The notes beneath the pieces are model-generated. The model made no database searches. It saw only the letters and a program-made list of their open reading frames with translations, and was not told where the DNA came from. The position numbers and the translations under genes are program-made. Of a DNA stretch of 64,000 bases, positions 45,743 through 56,086 are shown in pieces. The first letter of the stretch is position 1; each line of letters starts with the position of its first letter. Source of the DNA: Candidatus Obscuribacteraceae bacterium. Its GTDB lineage: Bacteria > Cyanobacteriota > Vampirovibrionia > Obscuribacterales > Obscuribacteraceae. The DNA lies in the NCBI GenBank assembly GCA_044226015.1, contig JBGAHS010000002.1, positions 352,001 to 416,000 on the forward strand, given 5' to 3'.

Positions 45743-46801
45743 GTGCCAGGCAAAGTTCTTATCACAGGTGGACATGGGTTCATAGGTGCTCACTTAGGAA
45801 GAGCCCTTATTAATGATGGGCATAGGGTTGTCTCGTATGGTCGCTCAAACAATTCAACAACTCTCATTAGAGATGGGAAAGAGAGTTCGACAGCTCATCA
45901 GCAGGTCTTTGCAGAGCTAGACAATTCAAGGCAGCTTGAGAATGCCCTTGTGGACTGCACAACAGTTTTTCATAAGGCGGCCAGCTGTCCTTCCCCATCA
46001 ATACAAAATGACGAAAGTCTATTTCAAGGCAATCTTGTCGGAACAAAGGCTTTGATCGCAACTTTGCGTGCGAACACAACAAACCTCGAACATTTGATTC
46101 TGGACTCATCTATTAGTGTCTATGGCGAAGGCGCTTATACTTGTCTTGCATGCGGAATAATTCGTCCTGATTTACGCAATCAGGAATCGATTCAGCACTC
46201 CACTTCATTCGAACCACGATGTCCAAAATGCAGTTCGCAAATAGAGCCTGCTGACACCTTCGAGACAGCGACTCTTAATGGACTTTCACATTATGCTCGT
46301 TCGAAAGCAGCACAAGAACGCCTTCTTGAAGAAGCCTCAAAGCAGTTAGGCTTTAAGTTGAGCATTCTTCGTTATGCCACCGTTTATGGTGCTCACCAAA
46401 GCGAACGCAGTACATACGGACGATTAATGCGCAGCATAATTAAAGGGGATAAAGTCTATGTTAATGAAGACGGAAATCAAAAGCGTGACTTCATACACAT
46501 CGATGATGTAATAGACGCTAACCTGCGAGTAATGAGCCGCCCCGGCGCAGAGAATGAAACTTTCAACATCGGCAGCGGAAAAGAAACTCCCTTGATCGAT
46601 TTCATCACTACCGCCATCGCACTTACACCAGAAAACGGTCGCAGATCAGCGGTGGAAATCAGAAATACTTTGAGCGAAGGCGACATCAGGCACTGCAAGA
46701 TCAGTTGTGAAAAAGCATCAACGGAGCTTGGTTTCGCTGCAAAAATTCCGTTGAAGCAAGGTTTAGCTCAGACGCTCAATGAGTATGGTTCATCCAAATA
46801 G
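45743..46801 (+). CDS. NAD-dependent epimerase/dehydratase with Cys-rich insert
   Basis: VLITGGHGFIG, SSISVYG, YARSK, LRYATVYG and RDFIHIDDV. CxxC...CxxC insert. GTG start at 45743 preferred. Confidence 0.88.
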   Translation: MPGKVLITGGHGFIGAHLGRALINDGHRVVSYGRSNNSTTLIRDGKESSTAHQQVFAELDNSRQLENALVDCTTVFHKAASCPSPSIQNDESLFQGNLVGTKALIATLRANTTNLEHLILDSSISVYGEGAYTCLACGIIRPDLRNQESIQHSTSFEPRCPKCSSQIEPADTFETATLNGLSHYARSKAAQERLLEEASKQLGFKLSILRYATVYGAHQSERSTYGRLMRSIIKGDKVYVNEDGNQKRDFIHIDDVIDANLRVMSRPGAENETFNIGSGKETPLIDFITTAIALTPENGRRSAVEIRNTLSEGDIRHCKISCEKASTELGFAAKIPLKQGLAQTLNEYGSSK

Positions 46802-46886
46802 TCCCAGAATTTGGCAGCTTTTTATCTGAGGACCGAGTCCCTTCATCACAGAAACCCTAAATCAAATTCAGGACAGGTTTAAGCAT

Positions 46887-47324
46887 CTAACTTGCTCTTG
46901 TAAGAGATTTTGGGGCAGCGCTTTTTGCTGGCACCAAAGATTGCACTCGAGCCGGCACAGCTGAGTATATGGCGTTTCCGCAGGAGGCAGCAGAAAATAA
47001 TGCAGCTCTAGTAATTTTGAGAATGTCGATAACTCGATTAATCACAATCGAATCGTACTGAGTGTGATCATCAATAAGCACACCGTCAACGCCTTCCTGT
47101 TCCGCAAAATGCGCAACTGCCGATTGCAAAGGCACAGTAAGCGGTTCTGACCAATGCACAACTTGAACTTGATTAGAATAGCTTTTCAGCCATTTCTGCA
47201 TTTTTTTCTTGTCTTCTGCACTATAAACAAGTGCAATTAGCTTCAACTTTTTCATTTCAAATACAACCATAAATTCATATCCAATTCTTCGCAATTTTGC
47301 AATTCTCGAAAGACGATCTGCCAT
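46887..47324 (-). CDS. Hypothetical protein coupled to argH
   Basis: ATG overlaps the argH stop (TAATG). 145 aa. Confidence 0.55.
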   Translation of the reverse strand: MADRLSRIAKLRRIGYEFMVVFEMKKLKLIALVYSAEDKKKMQKWLKSYSNQVQVVHWSEPLTVPLQSAVAHFAEQEGVDGVLIDDHTQYDSIVINRVIDILKITRAALFSAASCGNAIYSAVPARVQSLVPAKSAAPKSLTRAS

Positions 47325-48715
47325 TAGCTACAAACATCAGAATTCAATTGCAGCTGGTTCTTGCATTTAGCAAGCGCAGAAATTACACAATCCTTCCCGG
47401 TGCTTCCTGGGGATTGCTTGCTCGACACTGAAAGATGAGGATCAAACAAATCGAACACGTCGTTCTCGAACTTATCGGAAAACTGCTTGAACTCCGACAG
47501 AGACAGATCACTCAGGGCTTTTGAATTTTCCCTGCTGTAGTTTACGAGTTCAGAAACCGCCTCGTGAGCGACTCGGAATGCAACACCAGCTTTCACCAGG
47601 TATTCTGCAATATCCGTAGCCGCAAGAAAGGGATCCATTGCTGCCTTTTCCATCGTGGCTTTCTGAACATTCATTGAATTTATGACTACAACCATAACTT
47701 TCAATGACCCTAGAAGGGTGCTTGCTGCATCAATCACCGTGGGTTTTACTTCCTGGAGGTCTCTGTTGTAGCCGAGGGGAAGTGCCTTCAACGTTATCAA
47801 TGCATTTACTAGATTTCCGATGATCGAACCTGTTTTTCCTCGAACCAATTCAACCGGGTCGGGGTTCTTTTTGTTAGGCATCAAGCTCGAAGCAGTAGTT
47901 ACATTATCGTTAAAACCAACGAAGGAAAACTCTGAACTCGCCCAAATTATCAGTGTTTCGGCAAGCTGCGAAAGATGGGTTGAAGTGATGCATGCTGCAG
48001 AAAGAAACTCAAGTGCGAAGTCACGATCGCTGACCGCATCAAGTGAATTCTTGAATTCTTCGCTGAAACCTAGCAATGAAGAGGTCAAGCTGGGAATCAC
48101 CGGCAAGGCGGTTCCAGCAAGCGCTGCCGCACCTAATGGCGACACAGATACTCTTTTTTTGCAATCATTGAACCGGTCAAAATCTCTGTTCAACATCTCA
48201 ATGAATGCGTGCATTGCATGCGAAAAGAGAACTGGCTGAGCGCGCTGCAAATGTGTGTATCCCGGCATCACAGCATCAATATTCTCTTGAGCGCAATTCA
48301 GCAGAGCTGTTTGAAGTGAAACAATTTGTTTTTTCACCTCAGCTATCTTGCTGGCAGTATAGAGCCTGGTATCGAGAGCGACCTGGTCGTTCCGACTTCT
48401 AGCCGTATGCAGCCTAGCAGCGGCTGAACCAATTTTTGCTTCTAACTGTTTCTCGACGTTCATATGCACGTCTTCATACTCTGCAATTAGTTGCAATTTG
48501 CCAGAAGAATATTCGAGAGCAAGCTCTTTCAATCCCGAAGAAATTGCTTCGAATTCTTCAGTAGTTATCAGTCCTGCTTCACTGAGCATTTCAGCATGCG
48601 CCAGACTGCCTTTGATGTCTGATTGAATCAATTCAATGTCAGCATCAATAGAGTTGACAAACTGCGAGACTGCAGAATCAAGCTCCTGCTTGAACGCTTT
48701 TCTTAATACTTTCAT
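47324..48715 (-). CDS. argH: Argininosuccinate lyase
   Basis: EDVHMNVE, LHTARSRNDQ, MPGYTHLQRAQP and SSLMPNKKNPD. Start placed at MKVLRK, overlapping the end of argG. Confidence 0.95.
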   Translation of the reverse strand: MKVLRKAFKQELDSAVSQFVNSIDADIELIQSDIKGSLAHAEMLSEAGLITTEEFEAISSGLKELALEYSSGKLQLIAEYEDVHMNVEKQLEAKIGSAAARLHTARSRNDQVALDTRLYTASKIAEVKKQIVSLQTALLNCAQENIDAVMPGYTHLQRAQPVLFSHAMHAFIEMLNRDFDRFNDCKKRVSVSPLGAAALAGTALPVIPSLTSSLLGFSEEFKNSLDAVSDRDFALEFLSAACITSTHLSQLAETLIIWASSEFSFVGFNDNVTTASSLMPNKKNPDPVELVRGKTGSIIGNLVNALITLKALPLGYNRDLQEVKPTVIDAASTLLGSLKVMVVVINSMNVQKATMEKAAMDPFLAATDIAEYLVKAGVAFRVAHEAVSELVNYSRENSKALSDLSLSEFKQFSDKFENDVFDLFDPHLSVSSKQSPGSTGKDCVISALAKCKNQLQLNSDVCS

Positions 48716-49898
48716 GGGTCTTGCTCCAATTTGATAGTCTGATTGCATTGATGTTGATAAAACCGCCTGAGTCAGCAGGCGAGAAAGCCGTCATATCATC
48801 GAAGCTCGAGAGTTTATGAGCGTATAGAGATTTCTCAGCCTTTCTTCCAACAACTGAAGAATGCCCTTTGTAGAGTTTCACTTTGGCAGTTCCAGTCACG
48901 GGTGCTTGTATCTCATTTATTGTTGCTTTGAGAATTTTTGCTTCCGGAGCAAACCAATATCCGTTATATACAAGTGAAGCGAACTTGAGAGCAAGCTCTT
49001 GCGCCCAATGCGCTACTTCCTTGTCTAGAGTCAGTGACTCAACAGCCTGATGAGCTTGCATCAAGACCGTTACGCCAGGTGTCTCATACACGCCCCTGGA
49101 CTTGATACCGATATACCGGTTCTCGACCAGATCAACTCTGCCTACGCCGTGTTCAGCAGCAATCTTGTTCATGCTTTCGACAAGAGTTAACGCATCCATT
49201 TTCTTGCCGTTGATGGCAACAGGAATGCCGCATTCAAAATCAATGCTTACGGTTTCTGCCTTGTCTGGAGCGTTTTCCGGTGAATTGGTCCAGAGGTAAA
49301 TGTCCTCTGGAGCCTCTGCCCATGGATCTTCCAAAATGCCACCCTCATAACTGATGTGCATCAAGTTCGCATCCATAGAGTAGGGCTTGTCCTTACTTAT
49401 AGGAAGAGGTATGCCATGCTTTTCAGCGTAGTCGAAGAGGTCTTGCCTGCCATTGAAGGACCAAGATCTCCAGGGAGCTATAATCTCAAGTTGTGGTGCA
49501 AGTGACTTCACCGCAAACTCGAATCGCACCTGATCATTGCCCTTCCCCGTAGCACCATGAGCAATGGCATCACAGCCTTCTTTCAAAGCAGCTTCAACCA
49601 TTCCTGCAGCGATACAAGGTCTTGCAAGAGATGTGCCCATCAAATATACAGACTCATAGAACGCATCGGCTTTGATTGACTCGAAAATAAACTCTTCGAC
49701 GAATTGTTTTTTCAAATCAGCTACGATGCACTTTTCAGCGCCAGTAGCCAGAGCTTTGACTTTTACAGCCTCAAAATCCTCTTTCTGCCCTACATCGGCA
49801 CAATAAGCGACCACGGGTACGTTGTAGGTTTCTTTCAACCAGGTCAAAATCACTGAGGTATCAAGACCACCGCTATATGCTAACAATATTTTTTTCAT
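48678..49898 (-). CDS. argG: Argininosuccinate synthase
   Basis: LAYSGGLDTS, HGATGKGNDQVRFE and KSRGVYETPG. Confidence 0.97.
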   Translation of the reverse strand: MKKILLAYSGGLDTSVILTWLKETYNVPVVAYCADVGQKEDFEAVKVKALATGAEKCIVADLKKQFVEEFIFESIKADAFYESVYLMGTSLARPCIAAGMVEAALKEGCDAIAHGATGKGNDQVRFEFAVKSLAPQLEIIAPWRSWSFNGRQDLFDYAEKHGIPLPISKDKPYSMDANLMHISYEGGILEDPWAEAPEDIYLWTNSPENAPDKAETVSIDFECGIPVAINGKKMDALTLVESMNKIAAEHGVGRVDLVENRYIGIKSRGVYETPGVTVLMQAHQAVESLTLDKEVAHWAQELALKFASLVYNGYWFAPEAKILKATINEIQAPVTGTAKVKLYKGHSSVVGRKAEKSLYAHKLSSFDDMTAFSPADSGGFININAIRLSNWSKTHESIKKSVQAGA

Positions 49899-49950
49899 GA
49901 CTTAAATTCCTTTGATCCGCCAGGGCGGTAATGTAATGCTGTTGCGTGAA

Positions 49951-50979
49951 TTAGAGAACAAGCGCGAGAATAGCTTTCTGTGCGTGCAGCCGATTTTCTG
50001 CTTGATCAAACACCACTGACTGCGGTCCATCAATAACTTCATCGGTAATTTCATAGCCTCGGTGAGCTGGAAGGCAGTGCATCACGATGGCTGCGGGAAA
50101 GGACTTTTTCAGTAACTCCGCATTGACTTGGAAATCAGCAAAAGCTTTGATTTTGGAGCTTGCTTCGGCTTCCTGCCCCATTGATACCCATGTGTCTGTG
50201 TAGATTACATCAGCATCAGCAGCGGCCTCAGCTGCGTCGTGCGTCAGAGTTAGCTTTCCGCCCCAACTTGCGGCTTCGGCTAGCGTCTGCTCCCATATGG
50301 CGGGGTCTGGCATGTACTGCTCTGGGCAAGCAATAACGCATTCGGCACCAAATTTGGTAGCAGCCAGAAACAAAGAGTTTGATACATTATTTGGATCACC
50401 GATATACGCAATTTTAAGTCCCTCCAGGCAATCAAAGTGCTCAATTATGGTCAAGAGATCCGCAAGTGCCTGGCAAGGATGTTCGGCATCGCTCAAGCCA
50501 TTAATTACTGGGATTTTTGCATTCTCTGCCAGCTTTTCAACGGTTTCCTGCAAGAAGGTTCTTGCCATAATTCCGCTGACCCATCTTTCCAGGTTATGTG
50601 CAACATCAGCTATAGACTCTCTCACGCCGAGAGGACCATCCAAAAATATTGCATGACCGCCAAGCTGCTTCATACCGAGGTCAAAAGTGACTCTAGTTCT
50701 TAACGATGGCTTTTCAAAAAGCATAGCGAGTGACTTATTTTTGCACAGAAGTGATTGCGCATCATCATTGACGTGCTGCTTCAAGAGAGCAGCAGTATCC
50801 AGGAGAAGCTGAATCTCGGCTTTGCTCAGCCCCTCTATGCCCAGAATATCTTTTCCGCGCAGCGAGTCTTCATCCAGGATTTTTAGAAGCGGCGAGATTA
50901 CAGCTGCTTTCAATACAGCTTCCTTCGCTGGGCTCTTAGCCTTGTGATTCTGAACCTTTGCTGCGGATTTCATTTTCAT
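49951..50979 (-). CDS. argF: Ornithine carbamoyltransferase
   Basis: FEKPSLRTR, HPCQALAD, TDTWVSMG, MHCLP and QAENRLH. Confidence 0.96.
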   Translation of the reverse strand: MKMKSAAKVQNHKAKSPAKEAVLKAAVISPLLKILDEDSLRGKDILGIEGLSKAEIQLLLDTAALLKQHVNDDAQSLLCKNKSLAMLFEKPSLRTRVTFDLGMKQLGGHAIFLDGPLGVRESIADVAHNLERWVSGIMARTFLQETVEKLAENAKIPVINGLSDAEHPCQALADLLTIIEHFDCLEGLKIAYIGDPNNVSNSLFLAATKFGAECVIACPEQYMPDPAIWEQTLAEAASWGGKLTLTHDAAEAAADADVIYTDTWVSMGQEAEASSKIKAFADFQVNAELLKKSFPAAIVMHCLPAHRGYEITDEVIDGPQSVVFDQAENRLHAQKAILALVL

Positions 50980-51020
50980 TCTCCAGTCATTCGAATTTGT
51001 ACTTGTTTGAATTTAGATTT

Positions 51021-51093
51021 CACACCCCGCAGGAGTTGAACCTGCAACCTTCGGTTCCGTAGACCGTCGCTCTATCCATTGAGCTAGGAGTGT
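51021..51093 (-). tRNA. tRNA-Arg (anticodon ACG), CCA not encoded
   Basis: Minus strand ACACTCC TA GCTC AATGGATA GAGC G ACGGT CTACGGA ACCGA AGGTT GCAGG TTCAACT CCTGC GGGGTGT G folds into a full cloverleaf. The Arg identity element A20 is present. Confidence 0.93.
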
Positions 51094-51099
51094 ATAAAC

Positions 51100-51119
51100 G
51101 CGGGGCGTTTCCGCCCCGC
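51100..51119 (-). other. Stable GAAA-tetraloop hairpin between argB and the tRNA
   Basis: Minus strand GCGGGGCG-GAAA-CGCCCCGC, 6 nt before the tRNA 5' end, with only a short U run. Confidence 0.75.
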
Positions 51120-51133
51120 AGAACACGCGAGAC

Positions 51134-52042
51134 TTAAAGCTTCTTGTTGAATATTTGACAATCAGAGCCAGTCTTGCAGGAAATGGTTGTTCCGATTGTT
51201 TGTGTTGTTATAGCTTTGAGCAAGGCGTGTTCGGTATGTCCGTCAATAATTTGTGCAGCAGAAATCCCCATATTCACTGCATCTATACAGCTTTTGATTT
51301 TCGGAAGCATTCCACCTTTGATGGTACCATCGGCGATTTTGGCTTCAGCTTCGTCAACGTTCAGGTTTTTGATCAAAGTATTCTTCTCCGAAATGTCCTC
51401 AAGAACACCAGGAACATCGGTGATATTGATCAGCTTGGTAGCGCCAATTGCAGCAGCTAATTCCAGAGCTGCCGTATCGGCATTGATATTCAATACGCTG
51501 CCCGTTTCATTAAGAGCAAGCGGAGCAATCACGGGCACGGCGCCTTTCAAGAATGCTTCTTTTATTTTCGCAACGTTCACGCCGTTGACTTTACCAACGA
51601 AACCGAGGTCAAGTTCCTTTCCTGATGCATCGCTTGCGGTAAGCTTGCTAGCCGAGAAAATGGCGCTGGTATTTGGTATGAATTCTGTGGCGAAAACAGT
51701 TGATTCAAGCGGGACATAGCCAACGGCAGGAACCGAAACCAGCGAAATCTTCTCAACAATAAGCTGGTTAATTTCCGTAAGTTCTTCAACAACAATCTGT
51801 AGGGTTTCTTTATCAGTGACTCTGAGTCCTTGAATTTTGACAGGAACCTTGTTGAGCGCTGCAAGCTTCTGGTCAATGGCGGGACCACCGCCATGAACGA
51901 TTGCCAGAGAGAGACCAGCTTTCACTAGCTCTTTTGCATCTGCAAGCAAATTTTCTAGCAGCCCTTCAGTTTCGATGACGCTGCCACCAATTTTGACGAC
52001 TACGATTGTTCCAGTAAGATTGATTGTCTCGGCGGTATTCAT
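51134..52042 (-). CDS. argB: Acetylglutamate kinase
   Basis: VVKIGGS, VHGGGP, GLRVTD, NINADTAA and GGMLPK. Confidence 0.95.
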   Translation of the reverse strand: MNTAETINLTGTIVVVKIGGSVIETEGLLENLLADAKELVKAGLSLAIVHGGGPAIDQKLAALNKVPVKIQGLRVTDKETLQIVVEELTEINQLIVEKISLVSVPAVGYVPLESTVFATEFIPNTSAIFSASKLTASDASGKELDLGFVGKVNGVNVAKIKEAFLKGAVPVIAPLALNETGSVLNINADTAALELAAAIGATKLINITDVPGVLEDISEKNTLIKNLNVDEAEAKIADGTIKGGMLPKIKSCIDAVNMGISAAQIIDGHTEHALLKAITTQTIGTTISCKTGSDCQIFNKKL

Positions 52043-52156
52043 TGTTTCAATTCTCCAAAAAAATTAGTAGAAGGGCGCAGCAGTCCATAGCAAAGCCTGC
52101 TTTTCACCCATAATCAGGTCTTACAGTAGCGAAGGGGATAAACTCGCTACTGAGAC

Positions 52157-53380
52157 CTATGTACGATAAGCTCCATTGATTCTTACGTAATCGTAAGAGA
52201 GGTCACAGCCCCAGGCTGTTGCCTTAGAAAGTCCATCATGCAAATCAATCAATACTTGAATGTTTGATTTCTTCATCACTTTAAGTGCATGCGATTCATC
52301 GAACTTGCAGGGCTCACCGCCTTTGAGAAGCGGCACCACATTACCACTACTTGAAAGCGCAACAGAGACCTTTGCGGGGTCGAACCAGACACCGCCATAG
52401 CCCAGAGCTGCGACAATTCTGCCCCAGTTTGCGTCTTCACCAAACATCGCTGTCTTCACCAGGTTAGATGAAACAACAGATTTTGAGAGCTTGGAAGCAT
52501 CTTCAAATGACTTGCTTCCCTTTACAGTGACAGCTAAAAGTTTGGTAGCACCTTCGCCATCTTTTGCAATGCATTTTGCAAGAAAGACGTTGATAGCGCC
52601 AAGTGCTTTCACAAACAATTTCCATTCTTTGCTGCCTTCAACTACTGGTGCAGTTTCAGCAGCGCCATTAGCCATGATTGCCACCATGTCGTTTGTGCTC
52701 GTGTCACCATCAACTGAAATCATGTTGTAGGTTTTTTGCACGCTAACAATCAATGCCTTTTTCAAAAGTTCCTTTGAAATGTTTAGATCTGTGAGAATGA
52801 AAGAGAGCATGGTCGCCATGTTGGGATGAATCATTCCCGAGCCCTTTGCCATAGCAGCTATGGTCACGACCTTCTCTCCAACATTGAACTCCACAGAACA
52901 ATGCTTGATAAAAGTATCGGTCGTCATAATTGCGGTTGCTGCGTTCACACCGGCTTCATCGCTATGAGCAATTTTTGGTGCCAGGAATTCAATGCCGGCT
53001 TCGACTTTCTCGATGGGCATCGGAACACCTATAACACCTGTCGACGCGATGAGAATCTCGCCGGGGTCGGCGTTGAGGCAAGCAGCGGTTTTTGTAGCCA
53101 TTCTCCAGGTGTGTTCAACGCCCGTCGCACCGGTACATGAATTAGCGTTTCCACTATTGATGACAATCGCTTTGATCTTCTTTCCGCTAGCGTCAACCTT
53201 TTGGTTCCACATAATTGGAGCAGCTTTAACAACATTCGTTGTGAGAGCGACAGCAAAATCAGCCGGAACATCGCTGACGATAAGCGCGAGGTCCTTTCTT
53301 TTTCTCTTCAAACCAACGTGCTCTCCAGCAGCCTGGAAGCCCTTTGGCATTTGAAACTCTTTTGAAACTTTCACTGTCAT
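52157..53380 (-). CDS. argJ: Ornithine acetyltransferase / N-acetylglutamate synthase
   Basis: NSGNANSCTG, STGVIG, AKGSGMIHPNMATML, DGDTSTND and DGEGATK. Start placed at ATG 53380 after GGAG; the longer ORF to 53458 runs through the terminator. Confidence 0.95.
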   Translation of the reverse strand: MTVKVSKEFQMPKGFQAAGEHVGLKRKRKDLALIVSDVPADFAVALTTNVVKAAPIMWNQKVDASGKKIKAIVINSGNANSCTGATGVEHTWRMATKTAACLNADPGEILIASTGVIGVPMPIEKVEAGIEFLAPKIAHSDEAGVNAATAIMTTDTFIKHCSVEFNVGEKVVTIAAMAKGSGMIHPNMATMLSFILTDLNISKELLKKALIVSVQKTYNMISVDGDTSTNDMVAIMANGAAETAPVVEGSKEWKLFVKALGAINVFLAKCIAKDGEGATKLLAVTVKGSKSFEDASKLSKSVVSSNLVKTAMFGEDANWGRIVAALGYGGVWFDPAKVSVALSSSGNVVPLLKGGEPCKFDESHALKVMKKSNIQVLIDLHDGLSKATAWGCDLSYDYVRINGAYRT

Positions 53381-53402
53381 CACCCGCATCTCCAAAAGTT
53401 CA

Positions 53403-53437
53403 GAAATAAAAAACCCCGATCCTTCTGGACTCGGGGC
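53403..53437 (-). terminator. Attenuator terminator (segments 3:4)
   Basis: Minus strand GCCCCG(A)GTCC-AGAA-GGATCGGGGT followed by TTTTTATTTC, about 25 nt before the argJ start. Confidence 0.88.
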
Positions 53438-53478
53438 TGGAATGCGTAAATGATGCAAGCCTTTATTGCCCCGAGTCC
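53427..53478 (-). promoter_or_regulatory. Attenuator antiterminator (segments 2:3)
   Basis: GGACTCGGGGC (53478-53468, inside the leader ORF) is the perfect 11-nt complement of GCCCCGAGTCC (53437-53427), the 5' arm of the terminator. Confidence 0.85.
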
Positions 53479-53537
53479 TTCATACGAACGCGGCGGCTAC
53501 GGCGGTTTGTGTTGGCGATGTAACTAACAGATTTCAT
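53463..53537 (-). CDS. Putative arg operon leader peptide MKSVSYIANTNRRSRRVRMKDSGQ
   Basis: 24 codons plus TAA. Codons 12-18 are CGC CGT AGC CGC CGC GTT CGT. Lies between the promoter and the terminator. SD sequence is weak. Confidence 0.8.
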   Translation of the reverse strand: MKSVSYIANTNRRSRRVRMKDSGQ

Positions 53538-53568
53538 TTTTTGTGCCCACACTGACAAGATGAATTAA

Positions 53569-53598
53569 ACCATACACCTTGGAAATCGGATCCGTCAA
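53569..53598 (-). promoter_or_regulatory. Sigma70-type promoter of the arg leader/operon
   Basis: TTGACG-N18-TATGGT on the minus strand, about 30 nt upstream of the leader ATG. Confidence 0.6.
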
Positions 53599-53964
53599 CA
53601 AGATTTACTTTCGCTCATCAAAATGCGCAACATTTATTTTCGCATGCGCTTCACCGTGTGCACCCGGAGCGGGGCGGGTGACTGAGTCGAGTTTATCGTA
53701 GTTACCCATCGGCTCGTACAAGGATGAGCAAGGAGTACGAGGGACAGCTGCAAACAGGGAGCAAGGCTACAGGCAAGATCGAAGAGCTCAGGCAAGTGAT
53801 AAGTTCCATAGACGAGAGCAATGACTCCGAACAAACTGCAGCTACAAGCACAACGGTGGATCTAATTGACGAGAAGCCAGCTTGCAGATGGGAATAGACT
53901 GATTATCAGTAAATTAGATGCACCGAATTGATGACAACACATTTCAAAAAAAACTTGCTATCTT

Positions 53965-55059
53965 TTGAGCACTAATTCGGATGGAATCAAAGTGAAGAGT
54001 TCTGAAAAACTGAGGATTGGAATCGTCGGAGCGACCGGCTACACAGGCGTGGAGCTACTCCGTTTATTGTCCAGACATCCTCACGTGAGTATAGAAGGAT
54101 TGACTACCCGTACGGCAGCAGGCAAAGAAATTGCTCATATATTCCCTTCGCTGAAAAAAGTTTGTTCAACGACATGCTCAGATGAGAGTCTTGATGAGCT
54201 AAGTAAGAGAACAGACCTTGTATTCATAGCCCTTCCACATGGCGAAGCAGCCAATATGGTGACTTCGGACATACTAAACCGCTGCAAAATAATTGACCTC
54301 GGTGCTGACTTCAGGCTTGAGGATCCCTTAGATTACAAAAAGTGGTATCACTTAGACCATCCGAATCCACTCATGATCACCGAGGCAGTATACGGCTTGC
54401 CAGAGTTCAATAGGGAGAAGATTCGCAATGCACGATTGATTGCTAACCCAGGTTGCTATGCGACGTGCAGTATTCTATCTCTTGCTCCGCTTCTAAAAAA
54501 TTCCCTGATCGATGAAGACTCGATCATAGTAGATGCAAAATCTGGTGTTTCAGGAGCTGGAAGAGGACTTTCGCTGGTATCACATTTCAATGAGTGTAAT
54601 GAAAGCTTCAAGGCATATGCTGTAGCATCACACCGACACACGCCTGAGATAGAGCAAGCTTTGAAACAAGAAACAGGAGTAGCTACTACGCTAAGTTTCA
54701 CACCGCATTTAGTGCCAATGGATCGAGGCATTCTAGTGACGGCATATGCAAAACTGAGAAAAGGAATTCGATTCGAGGAATTGCAAGAGGCTTATGCAGA
54801 TTCATATAGAGATGAGCATTTCATCCGCATTTATGACAGCGCCGCAGAGCCGACTGTGCTGCCCGAAACAAGATGGGTGAGAGGAAGTAATTTTTGTGAC
54901 ATCTTCTACAAAATAGATGAACGCACTAATCGTGTAATAGTAGTTGCTACTATAGACAACTTGGTAAAAGGAGCAGCTGGTCAAGCGATTCAAAACATGA
55001 ATTTGATGAGTTCTTTTGATGAGAGACTGGCGTTGGAAGAAGCGGGATTTTTTCCATAA
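53965..55059 (+). CDS. argC: N-acetyl-gamma-glutamyl-phosphate reductase
   Basis: IVGATGYTG, IANPGCYAT, SGVSGAG, HRHTPEI and DNLVKGAAGQA. Exact start uncertain. Confidence 0.96.
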   Translation: MSTNSDGIKVKSSEKLRIGIVGATGYTGVELLRLLSRHPHVSIEGLTTRTAAGKEIAHIFPSLKKVCSTTCSDESLDELSKRTDLVFIALPHGEAANMVTSDILNRCKIIDLGADFRLEDPLDYKKWYHLDHPNPLMITEAVYGLPEFNREKIRNARLIANPGCYATCSILSLAPLLKNSLIDEDSIIVDAKSGVSGAGRGLSLVSHFNECNESFKAYAVASHRHTPEIEQALKQETGVATTLSFTPHLVPMDRGILVTAYAKLRKGIRFEELQEAYADSYRDEHFIRIYDSAAEPTVLPETRWVRGSNFCDIFYKIDERTNRVIVVATIDNLVKGAAGQAIQNMNLMSSFDERLALEEAGFFP

Positions 55060-55231
55060 GCCGCGATGAAAACAATCCCGCCAGCGCTTAGCTATGAGTT
55101 ATCCCGCTCCTTCAGCGACAGCTGTCAAAGCTGGATTATTTGAAGGTTGTCCTTCCGTCGAAGTTCCGACGATGTAATTCAACACTAGCTATCGTTTTAG
55201 CATTGGGTTCAAGGTAAAATACCGACAAGTA

Positions 55232-56086
55232 TTGGAGAGCATTATGGAACTTCTTAGCACATACAACAAAGTTTCAGTACCATCATTTATGTATGGCACT
55301 GCGTGGAAAAAAGATGCAACCACGCGTCTAACAAAAATGGCTGTTGAAGCAGGTTTCAAAGCAATCGATACGGCAAACCAATTAATCCACTATGATGAAG
55401 CGAAAGTAGGCGACGCTCTCTTGGAACTCTACAAAAAGGGAATTTCGCGCGAACAATTGTTTCTACAAACAAAATTCACCTCGGTGAATGGACAAGACCA
55501 CAGAACGCCCTATGATGCTTCTGCCGACTTAAGCTCTCAAGTAAAACAATCAATGGATAGTTCACTTAAGCATCTGCATACAGACTATCTTGATTCGTAC
55601 GTTCTCCACGGACCTTACTATCGCAGGGGGCTCAGCACCGAAGATTGGGAAATATGGACCGCGATTGAATCCCTTTTCCAGGATGGAAAAGCTCGAACAA
55701 TCGGAGTCAGTAATGTTAATGCAGAGCAGTTGCGCGAACTATGCAGCAAAGCAAAAACGAAACCAATGTTCGTCCAAAATCGCACCTTTGCCAGTACAGC
55801 TTGGGACCGCGAAGTGCGCAGCATTTGCACTAGCCACGGGATAATCTACCAAGGGTTTTCATTATTGACGGCGAATAGTCAGGTGCTTTCGAGCAACGAA
55901 ATCAAAAGCATTTCGAAACGATTGGGCGCCACTTCATCACAGGTGATTTTCCGATTTGCGATGCATATCGGCATGCTTCCATTAACAGGCACGACAAGCG
56001 AAGTTCACATGCGTGAAGATTTGAACGCTACGCATTTTGCTCTTTCAGAAGAAGACATCAGGACAATTGAAAACATCGCAGTATAG
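55232..56086 (+). CDS. Aldo/keto reductase
   Basis: YGTAWK, IDTA, LFLQTKF, YLDSYVLH and IGVSN. The ATG at 55244 may be the true start. Confidence 0.9.
   Translation: MESIMELLSTYNKVSVPSFMYGTAWKKDATTRLTKMAVEAGFKAIDTANQLIHYDEAKVGDALLELYKKGISREQLFLQTKFTSVNGQDHRTPYDASADLSSQVKQSMDSSLKHLHTDYLDSYVLHGPYYRRGLSTEDWEIWTAIESLFQDGKARTIGVSNVNAEQLRELCSKAKTKPMFVQNRTFASTAWDREVRSICTSHGIIYQGFSLLTANSQVLSSNEIKSISKRLGATSSQVIFRFAMHIGMLPLTGTTSEVHMREDLNATHFALSEEDIRTIENIAV

Follow-up and report, generated by a model that had tools for sequence, protein, structure and literature searches.

A spare, apparently foreign tRNA-Arg(ACG) gene within an arginine operon preceded by a predicted leader-peptide attenuator

The classical attenuators trpL, hisL, leuL, thrL, pheL and ilvL consist of a short leader open reading frame (ORF) with clustered codons for the cognate amino acid, followed by overlapping antiterminator and terminator helices. 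Here we analyse a 64,000-nucleotide stretch (the window) of Candidatus Obscuribacteraceae bacterium (GenBank assembly GCA_044226015.1, contig JBGAHS010000002.1, positions 352,001 to 416,000), where an arginine biosynthesis operon has a leader of this type and, in addition, a tRNA-Arg(ACG) gene between argB and argF. A further likeness is that the control codons belong to an isoacceptor that is presumably sensitive to starvation, following the theory as given in the cited part of PMC1183508. The differences are that this leader would sense arginine, that it belongs to a non-photosynthetic relative of the cyanobacteria and that its transcript apparently includes the gene of the tRNA that reads the control codons. 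A published arginine attenuator or attenuated tRNA gene was not found in the literature searched, which lay outside subscription journals and supplements.

Bacterial tRNA supply is usually thought to be tied to growth rate and general stress, not to the charging of one isoacceptor. A tRNA gene within or adjoining the genes that make its amino acid is known from pylT in pylTSBCD and from selC beside selAB. However, these are the sole dedicated tRNAs of non-standard amino acids and have no attenuator, whereas the tRNA of our operon is a spare one and its amino acid a standard one. In thrU-tyrU-glyT-thrT-tufB and other mixed tRNA-mRNA operons, where the tRNA is freed from the polycistronic message, the link is with translation factors and growth rate rather than with the tRNA's own amino-acid pathway; the genome studied here has a Thr-Tyr-Thr-tuf unit as well (contig C3). 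Saad et al. in 2012 reportedly described Clostridium tRNA genes under T-box control whose expression depends on how far the same tRNA is charged. The difference is that in our operon the ribosome would be the sensor and the tRNA is embedded among enzyme genes; an Rfam scan of positions 46000-56000 gave no T-box match up to an E-value of 5. The Saad reference and the dual specificity are given in a passage of the T-box literature (PMC4574755). The L-array tRNAs, described for the Anabaena trn operon, are also horizontally acquired extras beside a housekeeping set, and on-demand expression has been proposed for them (PMC8421152). In contrast to the general translational-stress response set out there, our case is a single tRNA in a biosynthetic operon with predicted codon-specific attenuation. 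There are no tandem tRNA genes in the 64-kb window, and only one tRNA.

The explanation that we propose, to which we would give a probability of about one half, is that a spare, conserved, probably foreign tRNA-Arg(ACG) is likely co-transcribed under the predicted attenuator, so that slow reading of CGC/CGU would lead to arginine synthesis plus extra cognate tRNA. As the most heavily loaded Arg isoacceptor, tRNA-Arg(ICG) would be the first to lose its charge. A ribosome waiting at codons 12-18 of the leader would free the strand 53478-53468 to pair with 53437-53427, and the terminator would not form. The transcript would then extend over argJ-argB-tRNA-argFGH. Cleavage by RNase P, trimming of the 3' end and addition of CCA would free the tRNA, which would enter the housekeeping pool and top up the busiest isoacceptor. 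Because the leader would gauge charged tRNA, it would answer a lack of tRNA and a lack of arginine, and the operon would provide both. The effect on the attenuator would be nil to negative: it would be buffered under true Arg limitation, and the operon would be shut once the pool exceeds the demand or arginine returns. More tentatively, a ribosome-read attenuator may gate the gene of the tRNA that it senses, this tRNA being a captured foreign one, and a single sensor may thus balance Arg supply and isoacceptor abundance.

If this is true, the carrier and the tRNA-free sister species offer a natural test of selective-charging theory. If the tRNA is made by read-through of the attenuator, this would be codon-specific, on-demand synthesis of a chromosomal tRNA, joined to the pathway of the same amino acid. 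The locus shows the selective-charging logic unusually clearly, as CGC/CGU are the sole Arg codons of the leader, very rare ones in the enzymes and the prevailing ones in rpoB. The novelty lies in a cognate and apparently foreign tRNA embedded in an arg operon; its limits are a narrow distribution and an evident dispensability.

Regarding the tRNA itself, an initial annotation made from the window alone had described a complete, co-directional tRNA-Arg(ACG) between argB and argF, 40 nucleotides (nt) from the argB stop. Our tRNA calls, made by ARAGORN and Rfam (RF00005, gathering score 29), agree with this description: the gene scores 59.7 bits over the full model, its 5' end lies 40 nt past the argB stop (ends 51134), and the argF ATG at 50979 is 41 nt beyond the discriminator. 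We call G000 the genome that holds the operon studied; other G-numbers are genomes of the same family and X-numbers are sequencing runs. Two homologues stand at the same place in G002 and G004, and the three form a complete cloverleaf, with 62 of 63 stem cells paired and one two-sided change at 1-72. The identity elements of ArgRS are A20, C35, G36 and A or G at position 73. A20, C35, G36 and G73 are invariant in the three tRNAs, and so is the anticodon-loop stretch C32-U33-A34-C35-G36. The genome holds one ArgRS scoring over its cut-off, and its best match to TadA, the enzyme that would convert A34 to I34, reaches 126.8 bits (cut-off 150). Since no GCG tRNA is among the 72 called, the reading of CGC needs the ACG tRNAs. 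Having the sequence features of a working tRNA, the gene appears to encode a functional elongator tRNA-Arg(ACG). Among the RNA contig pieces listed for this organism, none covers it.

The A1-U72 pair and the A27·A43 mismatch had been taken as hints of a specialised second copy. Both features are present, but we reject them as marks of specialisation because they are private to G000; G002 and G004 have G1-C72 and U27-A43. Position 37 is G, but A in G004. On the other hand, that this is a real second copy and not a pseudogene is upheld by a conservation far above that of neutral sites. The three operon tRNAs are identical at 64-67 of 73 positions, versus 30-40% at the fourfold sites of argB, argG and argH in the same genomes, and their differences (6-9 of 73) are confined to loops, linkers, the pair 1-72 (two-sided) or position 27. 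Judging from these comparisons, the operon tRNA is under purifying selection. The argB-tRNA-argF synteny, whose check in relatives the initial annotation had proposed, is kept in G002, in G004 and in a contig of one more relative (run X4, another study). This contig of 4406 nt, whose argG shows 168 differences in 908 nt (around 81% identical), crosses the junction and has one placeable change in the tRNA (position 1), whereas the spacer of 41 nt that follows the tRNA has 9 substitutions and 5 indels; up to 7 of the 26 differences are unplaceable and some of them may lie inside the tRNA.

The operon tRNA had also been presented as the one that reads the leader, and this did not survive the whole-genome ARAGORN search, as two further ACG genes exist. 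The Arg set among the 72 tRNA genes consists of three ACG genes plus TCG, CCG, two TCT and CCT. Apart from the operon copy, one ACG gene stands alone (C4:123214-123290) and another lies inside an 18-gene array on contig C10. The stand-alone gene is the housekeeping copy: it is 77/77 identical in G000, G002, G004, G006 and G007, 92% identical in the other three genomes of the genus, and intact in all eight. The operon tRNA is of a wholly different sequence type, yet its T-stem pairs 49-51 are identical to those of the housekeeping copy. We also observed that the 3' half of the housekeeping gene is duplicated elsewhere (at least 94% identity) in six of the eight genus genomes, for instance at C12:352175-352226, with a similar motif downstream of the duplicates. 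In this respect the housekeeping gene resembles an integration site shared across the genus.

We consider it likely that the tRNA is co-transcribed with the operon under leader control, because it is on the operon strand, and because in G002 and G004 it lies only 3 and 5 nt from the argB stop and no promoter-like score is found upstream (0.8 and 2.3, respectively). The matrix behind these scores was built from 17 leader promoters outside the genus. In G000, the scan with a consensus promoter found none close to the tRNA. The spacer of G000 contains, just before the tRNA, a GC hairpin (51120-51099) that the initial annotation does not mention and that could be a candidate 3' protector of the argJB piece or a partial terminator; in the X4 relative the changes listed fall in its loop and outer end and spare the core of the stem.

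The leader was read codon by codon (53537-53463), and the five Arg codons are, as had been claimed, all CGC or CGT, in the order CGC, CGT, CGC, CGC, CGT. CGC and CGT make up 43% of the Arg codons in 3528 long ORFs, so five out of five has p ~0.015. Since the contig of G004 stops short of the leader, four leaders could be compared in the genus (G000, G002, G006 and G007). The RRSRRVR cluster of G000 is identical in the other three, and the 11-bp antiterminator helix is present in all four. A simple scan for terminators missed the terminator owing to a one-base bulge. Altogether we found 22 attenuator-like leaders in 21 genomes of the family, preceding argJ, argB, argC, argF or argG, by a motif-guided search in which the terminator motif was part of the pattern and codon identity was no criterion, and whose misses are not absences. 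Mutually exclusive helices of 7-12 bp occur in 21 of the 22. The antiterminator strand begins 5 nt past the last Arg codon in the genus and 4-17 nt past it in 15 of the 18 other leaders, the remaining three being parsed poorly. In those 18 leaders (17 genomes), 56 of the 73 cluster codons are CGC/CGU and 69 are CGC/CGU/CGA. All the sequence features that could be examined here agree with a classical leader-peptide attenuator, which is how we predict this leader to act. In addition, among 2672 upstream regions (ORFs of at least 250 aa) the arg leader was the sole strong match of a genome-wide attenuator scan.

The four genus leaders are nearly identical regardless of tRNA carriage, and therefore the attenuator needs no operon tRNA. 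Comparing the sequences, the attenuator is older and wider than the tRNA, which is an optional add-on and not part of the core. For the same reason, we rejected the leader codon choice as a sign that leader and operon tRNA are coupled: non-carriers make the same choice. An RNA run (X7) gave an identical 240-nt contig over 53298-53537 that crosses the terminator, plus a 229-nt argF piece; these contigs come with neither strand nor level and may derive from DNA, none of those listed bridges argB-tRNA-argF, and neither they nor the other runs with a small share served as evidence. A weak Ile/Val-rich upstream ORF with a hairpin, on the minus strand of contig C5 near 201307, stands before a 946-aa gene and may be a second attenuator. 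The N-terminus of this gene resembles ileS.

Regarding codon usage, the genes argJBFGH have 39 Arg codons where 89 are expected, and only 4 of the 39 are CGC/CGU (CGY), while 22 are AGA. This scarcity of CGC/CGU has p ~2e-5 against genes matched for GC content at third codon positions, and none of 3524 five-gene blocks is as low. By comparison, 65 of the 83 Arg codons of rpoB are CGC/CGU, and the unattenuated argC shows no Arg depletion (22 Arg in 354 aa). In selective-charging theory, as set out in the part of PMC1183508 cited here, the isoacceptor with a high codon load per tRNA becomes uncharged first and is the best sensor for an attenuator. tRNA-Arg(ICG) would suit this role of a high-load sensing isoacceptor, and the codon pattern of the arg enzymes is the one that selective charging expects. 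The opposite design problem, stalling on the CGG codons of argA, has been modelled for E. coli (a passage of PMC10325894).

We also built a toy model with the steady-state charging equations of PMC1183508 for five isoacceptors, with assumed tRNA levels, six assumed parameter sets and two supply levels. Added ICG tRNA slowed CGY reading in no set. In the four clearly ICG-limited sets at supply 0.8, 1.5-fold tRNA left CGY reading nearly constant (e.g. 2.5 to 2.6 codons/s); a several-fold jump came at 2- to 3-fold tRNA in three of them, and none up to 4-fold in the fourth. Of the other two, a set near balance jumped at 1.25-fold and in the last ICG was not limiting. In this model, the feedback would be nil or negative, and thresholded. 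The initial annotation had suggested a feedback loop on the attenuator; a negative sign is possible, but not the strength it implied, since the reading of the leader barely changes in the model before the threshold. More plausibly, the benefit is relief of a tRNA shortage or a quicker recovery. In E. coli, though not shown for this lineage, most tRNA is degraded early in amino-acid starvation, according to the portion of PMC5314770 cited.

We then turn to distribution and origin. Matches to argB and argF were found in five of the eight genomes of our genus sample (G000, G002, G004, G006 and G007), and the tRNA lies directly after argB in three of these five operons. As a query against 104 family genomes, it gave full-length 90% matches only in G002 and G004. 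No tRNA-Arg was nearby at 27 of 30 argB loci. A scan of 80 metagenome argF loci, mostly distant, found a tRNA between arg genes in none, the genus being present in none of them (best argF identity 62%), and a single-protein argB scan of genome contigs found no relative. The initial annotation had named absence from this position in relatives that keep the attenuator as evidence against its idea. Such absence is seen in G006, G007 and 17 genomes of other genera, so that the idea is partly refuted by its own standard.

In a tree of rpoB and gyrB (5100 nt from 8 genomes), G000 and the non-carrier G007 come together (99/99 for protein, 94.5/82 for DNA), and monophyly of the three carriers is narrowly rejected (approximately unbiased test, p 0.033), whereas the argH tree puts G007 with the carrier G002 (86/86). 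The simplest reading of these sequences would be one gain in the ancestor of the five genomes and losses in G006 and G007, with the deeper branches unresolved. The argB-argF spacer of G007 (L032:7847-8000) consists of short tandem repeats of the TCAAT/TCGAC type, like the post-tRNA spacer of G002, and is a possible scar of tRNA loss. As a separate observation, two rpoB-like genes (C11:1301372-1304497 and C11:705006-707501) exceed the TIGR02013 cut-off in all eight genus genomes, the second being longer and more divergent.

The operon copies resemble a stand-alone tRNA-Arg(ACG) gene of Planctomycetota (63-67/73) and two genes of viral contigs (63/73), versus 43-46/73 for the housekeeping gene and 42-50/73 for eight further distinct ACG genes compared from the lineage; the Planctomycetota and viral sets were chosen for similarity, and 73 nt are too short to name a donor. 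In the Planctomycetota sample, 23 of 61 genomes match the operon tRNA at E 1e-10 or better. On this resemblance the operon tRNA is probably of foreign origin, through a horizontal gain followed by losses. A joint transfer of argB and the tRNA from Planctomycetota is unsupported, since the ArgB of the Planctomycetota genome with the similar tRNA is 38% identical, like that of other outsiders; no arg genes were found within ~1.5 kb of 30 Planctomycetota tRNA loci, and the ArgB tree is unresolved. An origin from the lineage's own tRNA arrays was rejected as well (identity of at most 50/73). As to these arrays, the 18-gene one (C10:356333-358584) is L-array-like and has a TadA-like deaminase fragment ~3 kb upstream (C10:353268). 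In G020 (contig C291), a 17-gene array that is co-directional with argR-argG ends ~1 kb upstream of them; the ACG gene in it is not related to the operon type (49/73). G086 has three tandem tRNA-Trp(CCA) genes inside 800 nt (contig C143).

Several observations weigh against the explanation that we propose. The tRNA is missing at the argB-argF junction of G006 (short spacer) and G007 (repeat-rich spacer), both of which keep the leader, and no tRNA was found between arg genes in 48 genomes from other genera, whose loci were taken round argF in 40 (of 67 with an argF match) and round argB in 8, not always with the whole pathway. Therefore, its benefit would be small or conditional. The operon copy is conserved at 88-92%, versus 100% for the housekeeping copy, and the structure-pair control is powerless with three sequences, as 157 of 500 shuffles reach the observed value. 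Avoidance of CGY is alike in carriers (0.10, 0.28 and 0.22) and non-carriers (0.29 and 0.21), and thus independent of the operon tRNA. In the model, extra ICG tRNA under true Arg limitation did not raise the charged level and slowed AGA reading, which is a cost because the enzymes mostly use AGA. Regarding co-transcription, the promoter matrix has little sensitivity and misses most tRNA promoters (its median score on 44 tRNAs that come first in their cluster is 5.4), so a low score is no proof that a promoter is absent, and the GC hairpin before the tRNA could partly terminate the transcript in G000. The earlier statement that the tRNA has no obvious promoter of its own agrees with the consensus scan but not entirely with the lineage-trained matrix, which finds in G000 a weak site, TTGTCA-18-TTAAGT, at 51161-51132 across the argB stop (score 9.1). 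This score is attained by 4.5% of 600 coding 3' ends, and the site is not conserved: 3 of 6 bases of its -10 box differ in the X4 relative, and it is not seen in G002 or G004.

Other explanations have to be weighed against ours. A foreign tRNA that landed by chance might have been kept merely as an extra, integrase-proof copy, expressed by basal read-through or from the weak promoter, with Arg regulation irrelevant. The housekeeping ACG gene, a single gene that serves 43% of the Arg codons, does look like an integration hot spot, given its 3'-half duplicates in 6/8 genus genomes, and the patchy retention and the promoter-like site of G000 would fit too. Yet the housekeeping gene is intact in 8/8 of these genomes, the site is altered in the closest relative and unseen in G002 and G004, and a chance landing in the cognate operon is itself improbable. 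Actually, among 40 other tRNA stretches examined in G000, none has next to it a gene recognisable as serving the synthesis of the tRNA's own amino acid. This check covered the nearest neighbours only, with Pfam applied to 68 of 84 ORFs (16 short ones, the C2 Leu and the rRNA-operon Ile/Ala loci excluded), and within it we saw no tendency of the genome to put tRNAs into cognate operons. We find this back-up role doubtful. Alternatively, the tRNA may be punctuation, a cassette for cleavage by RNase P and at its 3' end that splits argJB from argFGH so that their stabilities differ, the anticodon being incidental and the tRNA a by-product. It does sit where the ornithine-making half meets the arginine-making one, and many relatives have the two halves as separate units; strong hairpins flank it (upstream in G000, downstream in G002 and G004), and the stems are its conserved part. 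However, C32-U33-A34-C35-G36 and A20 are invariant in all three copies, any tRNA would do for such a purpose whereas this one matches both the pathway and the leader codons, and six genomes of other genera in which argB precedes argF within a single locus (G012, G013, G014, G031, G093 and G098) manage without a tRNA, so we regard punctuation as unlikely.

A dedicated sensor, i.e. an operon tRNA whose special charging or decoding sets the attenuator, giving a tight negative loop and pulsed expression, would fit with a sequence type so unlike the housekeeping copy, and in the model, with the Arg supply fixed, CGY reading rises several-fold in 4 of the 6 parameter sets when the pool is 1.25 to 3 times as large. 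Nevertheless, the leader is near-identical with and without the tRNA, the special features are private to G000 (and G37 becomes A37 in G004), the T-stem pairs 49-51 match the housekeeping copy, and one basally silent gene would hardly double a major tRNA pool quickly; such a strong switch is quite improbable. Finally, we give very little credit to a pseudogene or the leftover of an integrated element. The A27·A43 mismatch and the A57 and C59 of the T-loop in G000, the losses in sister species and the phage contigs with the same tRNA type (63/73) could be read in this way, but four lineages keep the gene conserved far above neutral sites. A remnant of an integration site was rejected, because the gene is of full length, only 43-46/73 identical to the host gene and no duplicate of the 3' half of one, and argB and argF lie directly on either side.

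The features are collected in Table 1. The order on the minus strand is argJ-argB-tRNA-argF-argG-argH, with argC divergent, and all the genes exceed their NCBIfam cut-offs.

Table 1. Positions in the window of the arginine genes, the leader elements and the tRNA
Feature	Position	Strand	Remarks
argH, argininosuccinate lyase	47324..48748	-	TIGR00838
argG, argininosuccinate synthase	48678..49898	-	TIGR00032
argF, ornithine carbamoyltransferase	49951..50979	-	TIGR00658
Supernumerary tRNA-Arg(ACG), 73 nt, foreign sequence type, no encoded CCA; A20/C35/G36/G73, G37	51021..51093	-	
GC hairpin of 9 bp, GAAA loop, weak U-tract, 5 nt before the tRNA	51099..51120	-	absent in G002 and G004
argB, acetylglutamate kinase	51134..52042	-	TIGR00761
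Two hairpins in the argJ-argB spacer	52050..52157	-	z -4.1
argJ, ornithine acetyltransferase	52157..53380	-	TIGR00120, 476 bits; start 53380 inferred from Shine-Dalgarno spacing
Shared strand 53437-53427, predicted terminator hairpin 53436-53414 and U-tract 53413-53404	53404..53437	-	-16.8 kcal/mol, z -3.2
Leader ORF of 24 codons, five Arg control codons (12, 13, 15, 16, 18; 53504-53484)	53463..53537	-	
Predicted antiterminator 5' strand within the leader ORF, 11 bp with 53437-53427	53468..53478	-	fold z -4.6
Candidate sigma70-type promoter, TTGACG-18-TATGGT	53569..53598	-	score 12.3; 15.0-16.6 in three same-genus homologues
argC, outside the attenuated unit, divergent	53965..55059	+	TIGR01850

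In the argJ-argB spacer, G002 and G007 have other hairpins and G006 has none that is strong. ArgB has a single Arg in 302 aa and diverges fast within the genus (46-54% between species, versus 67-75% for ArgF). The ArgF match of G004 stops after residue 172-236 of the query, which suggests a frameshift or an assembly error. At 46887-47324, a 145-aa ORF that matches no NCBIfam model overlaps the stop of argH; it also lies 3' of argH in G004, G006 and G007.

Regarding the repressor, ArgR was not found in G000 (genome 92% complete). It is present in 9 of 41 family genomes and its gene is directly before argG in five (G010, G020, G028, G068 and G087), with no leader match in those loci, hinting at a replacement between repressor and attenuator. 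G009 and G012 have both ArgR and a leader.

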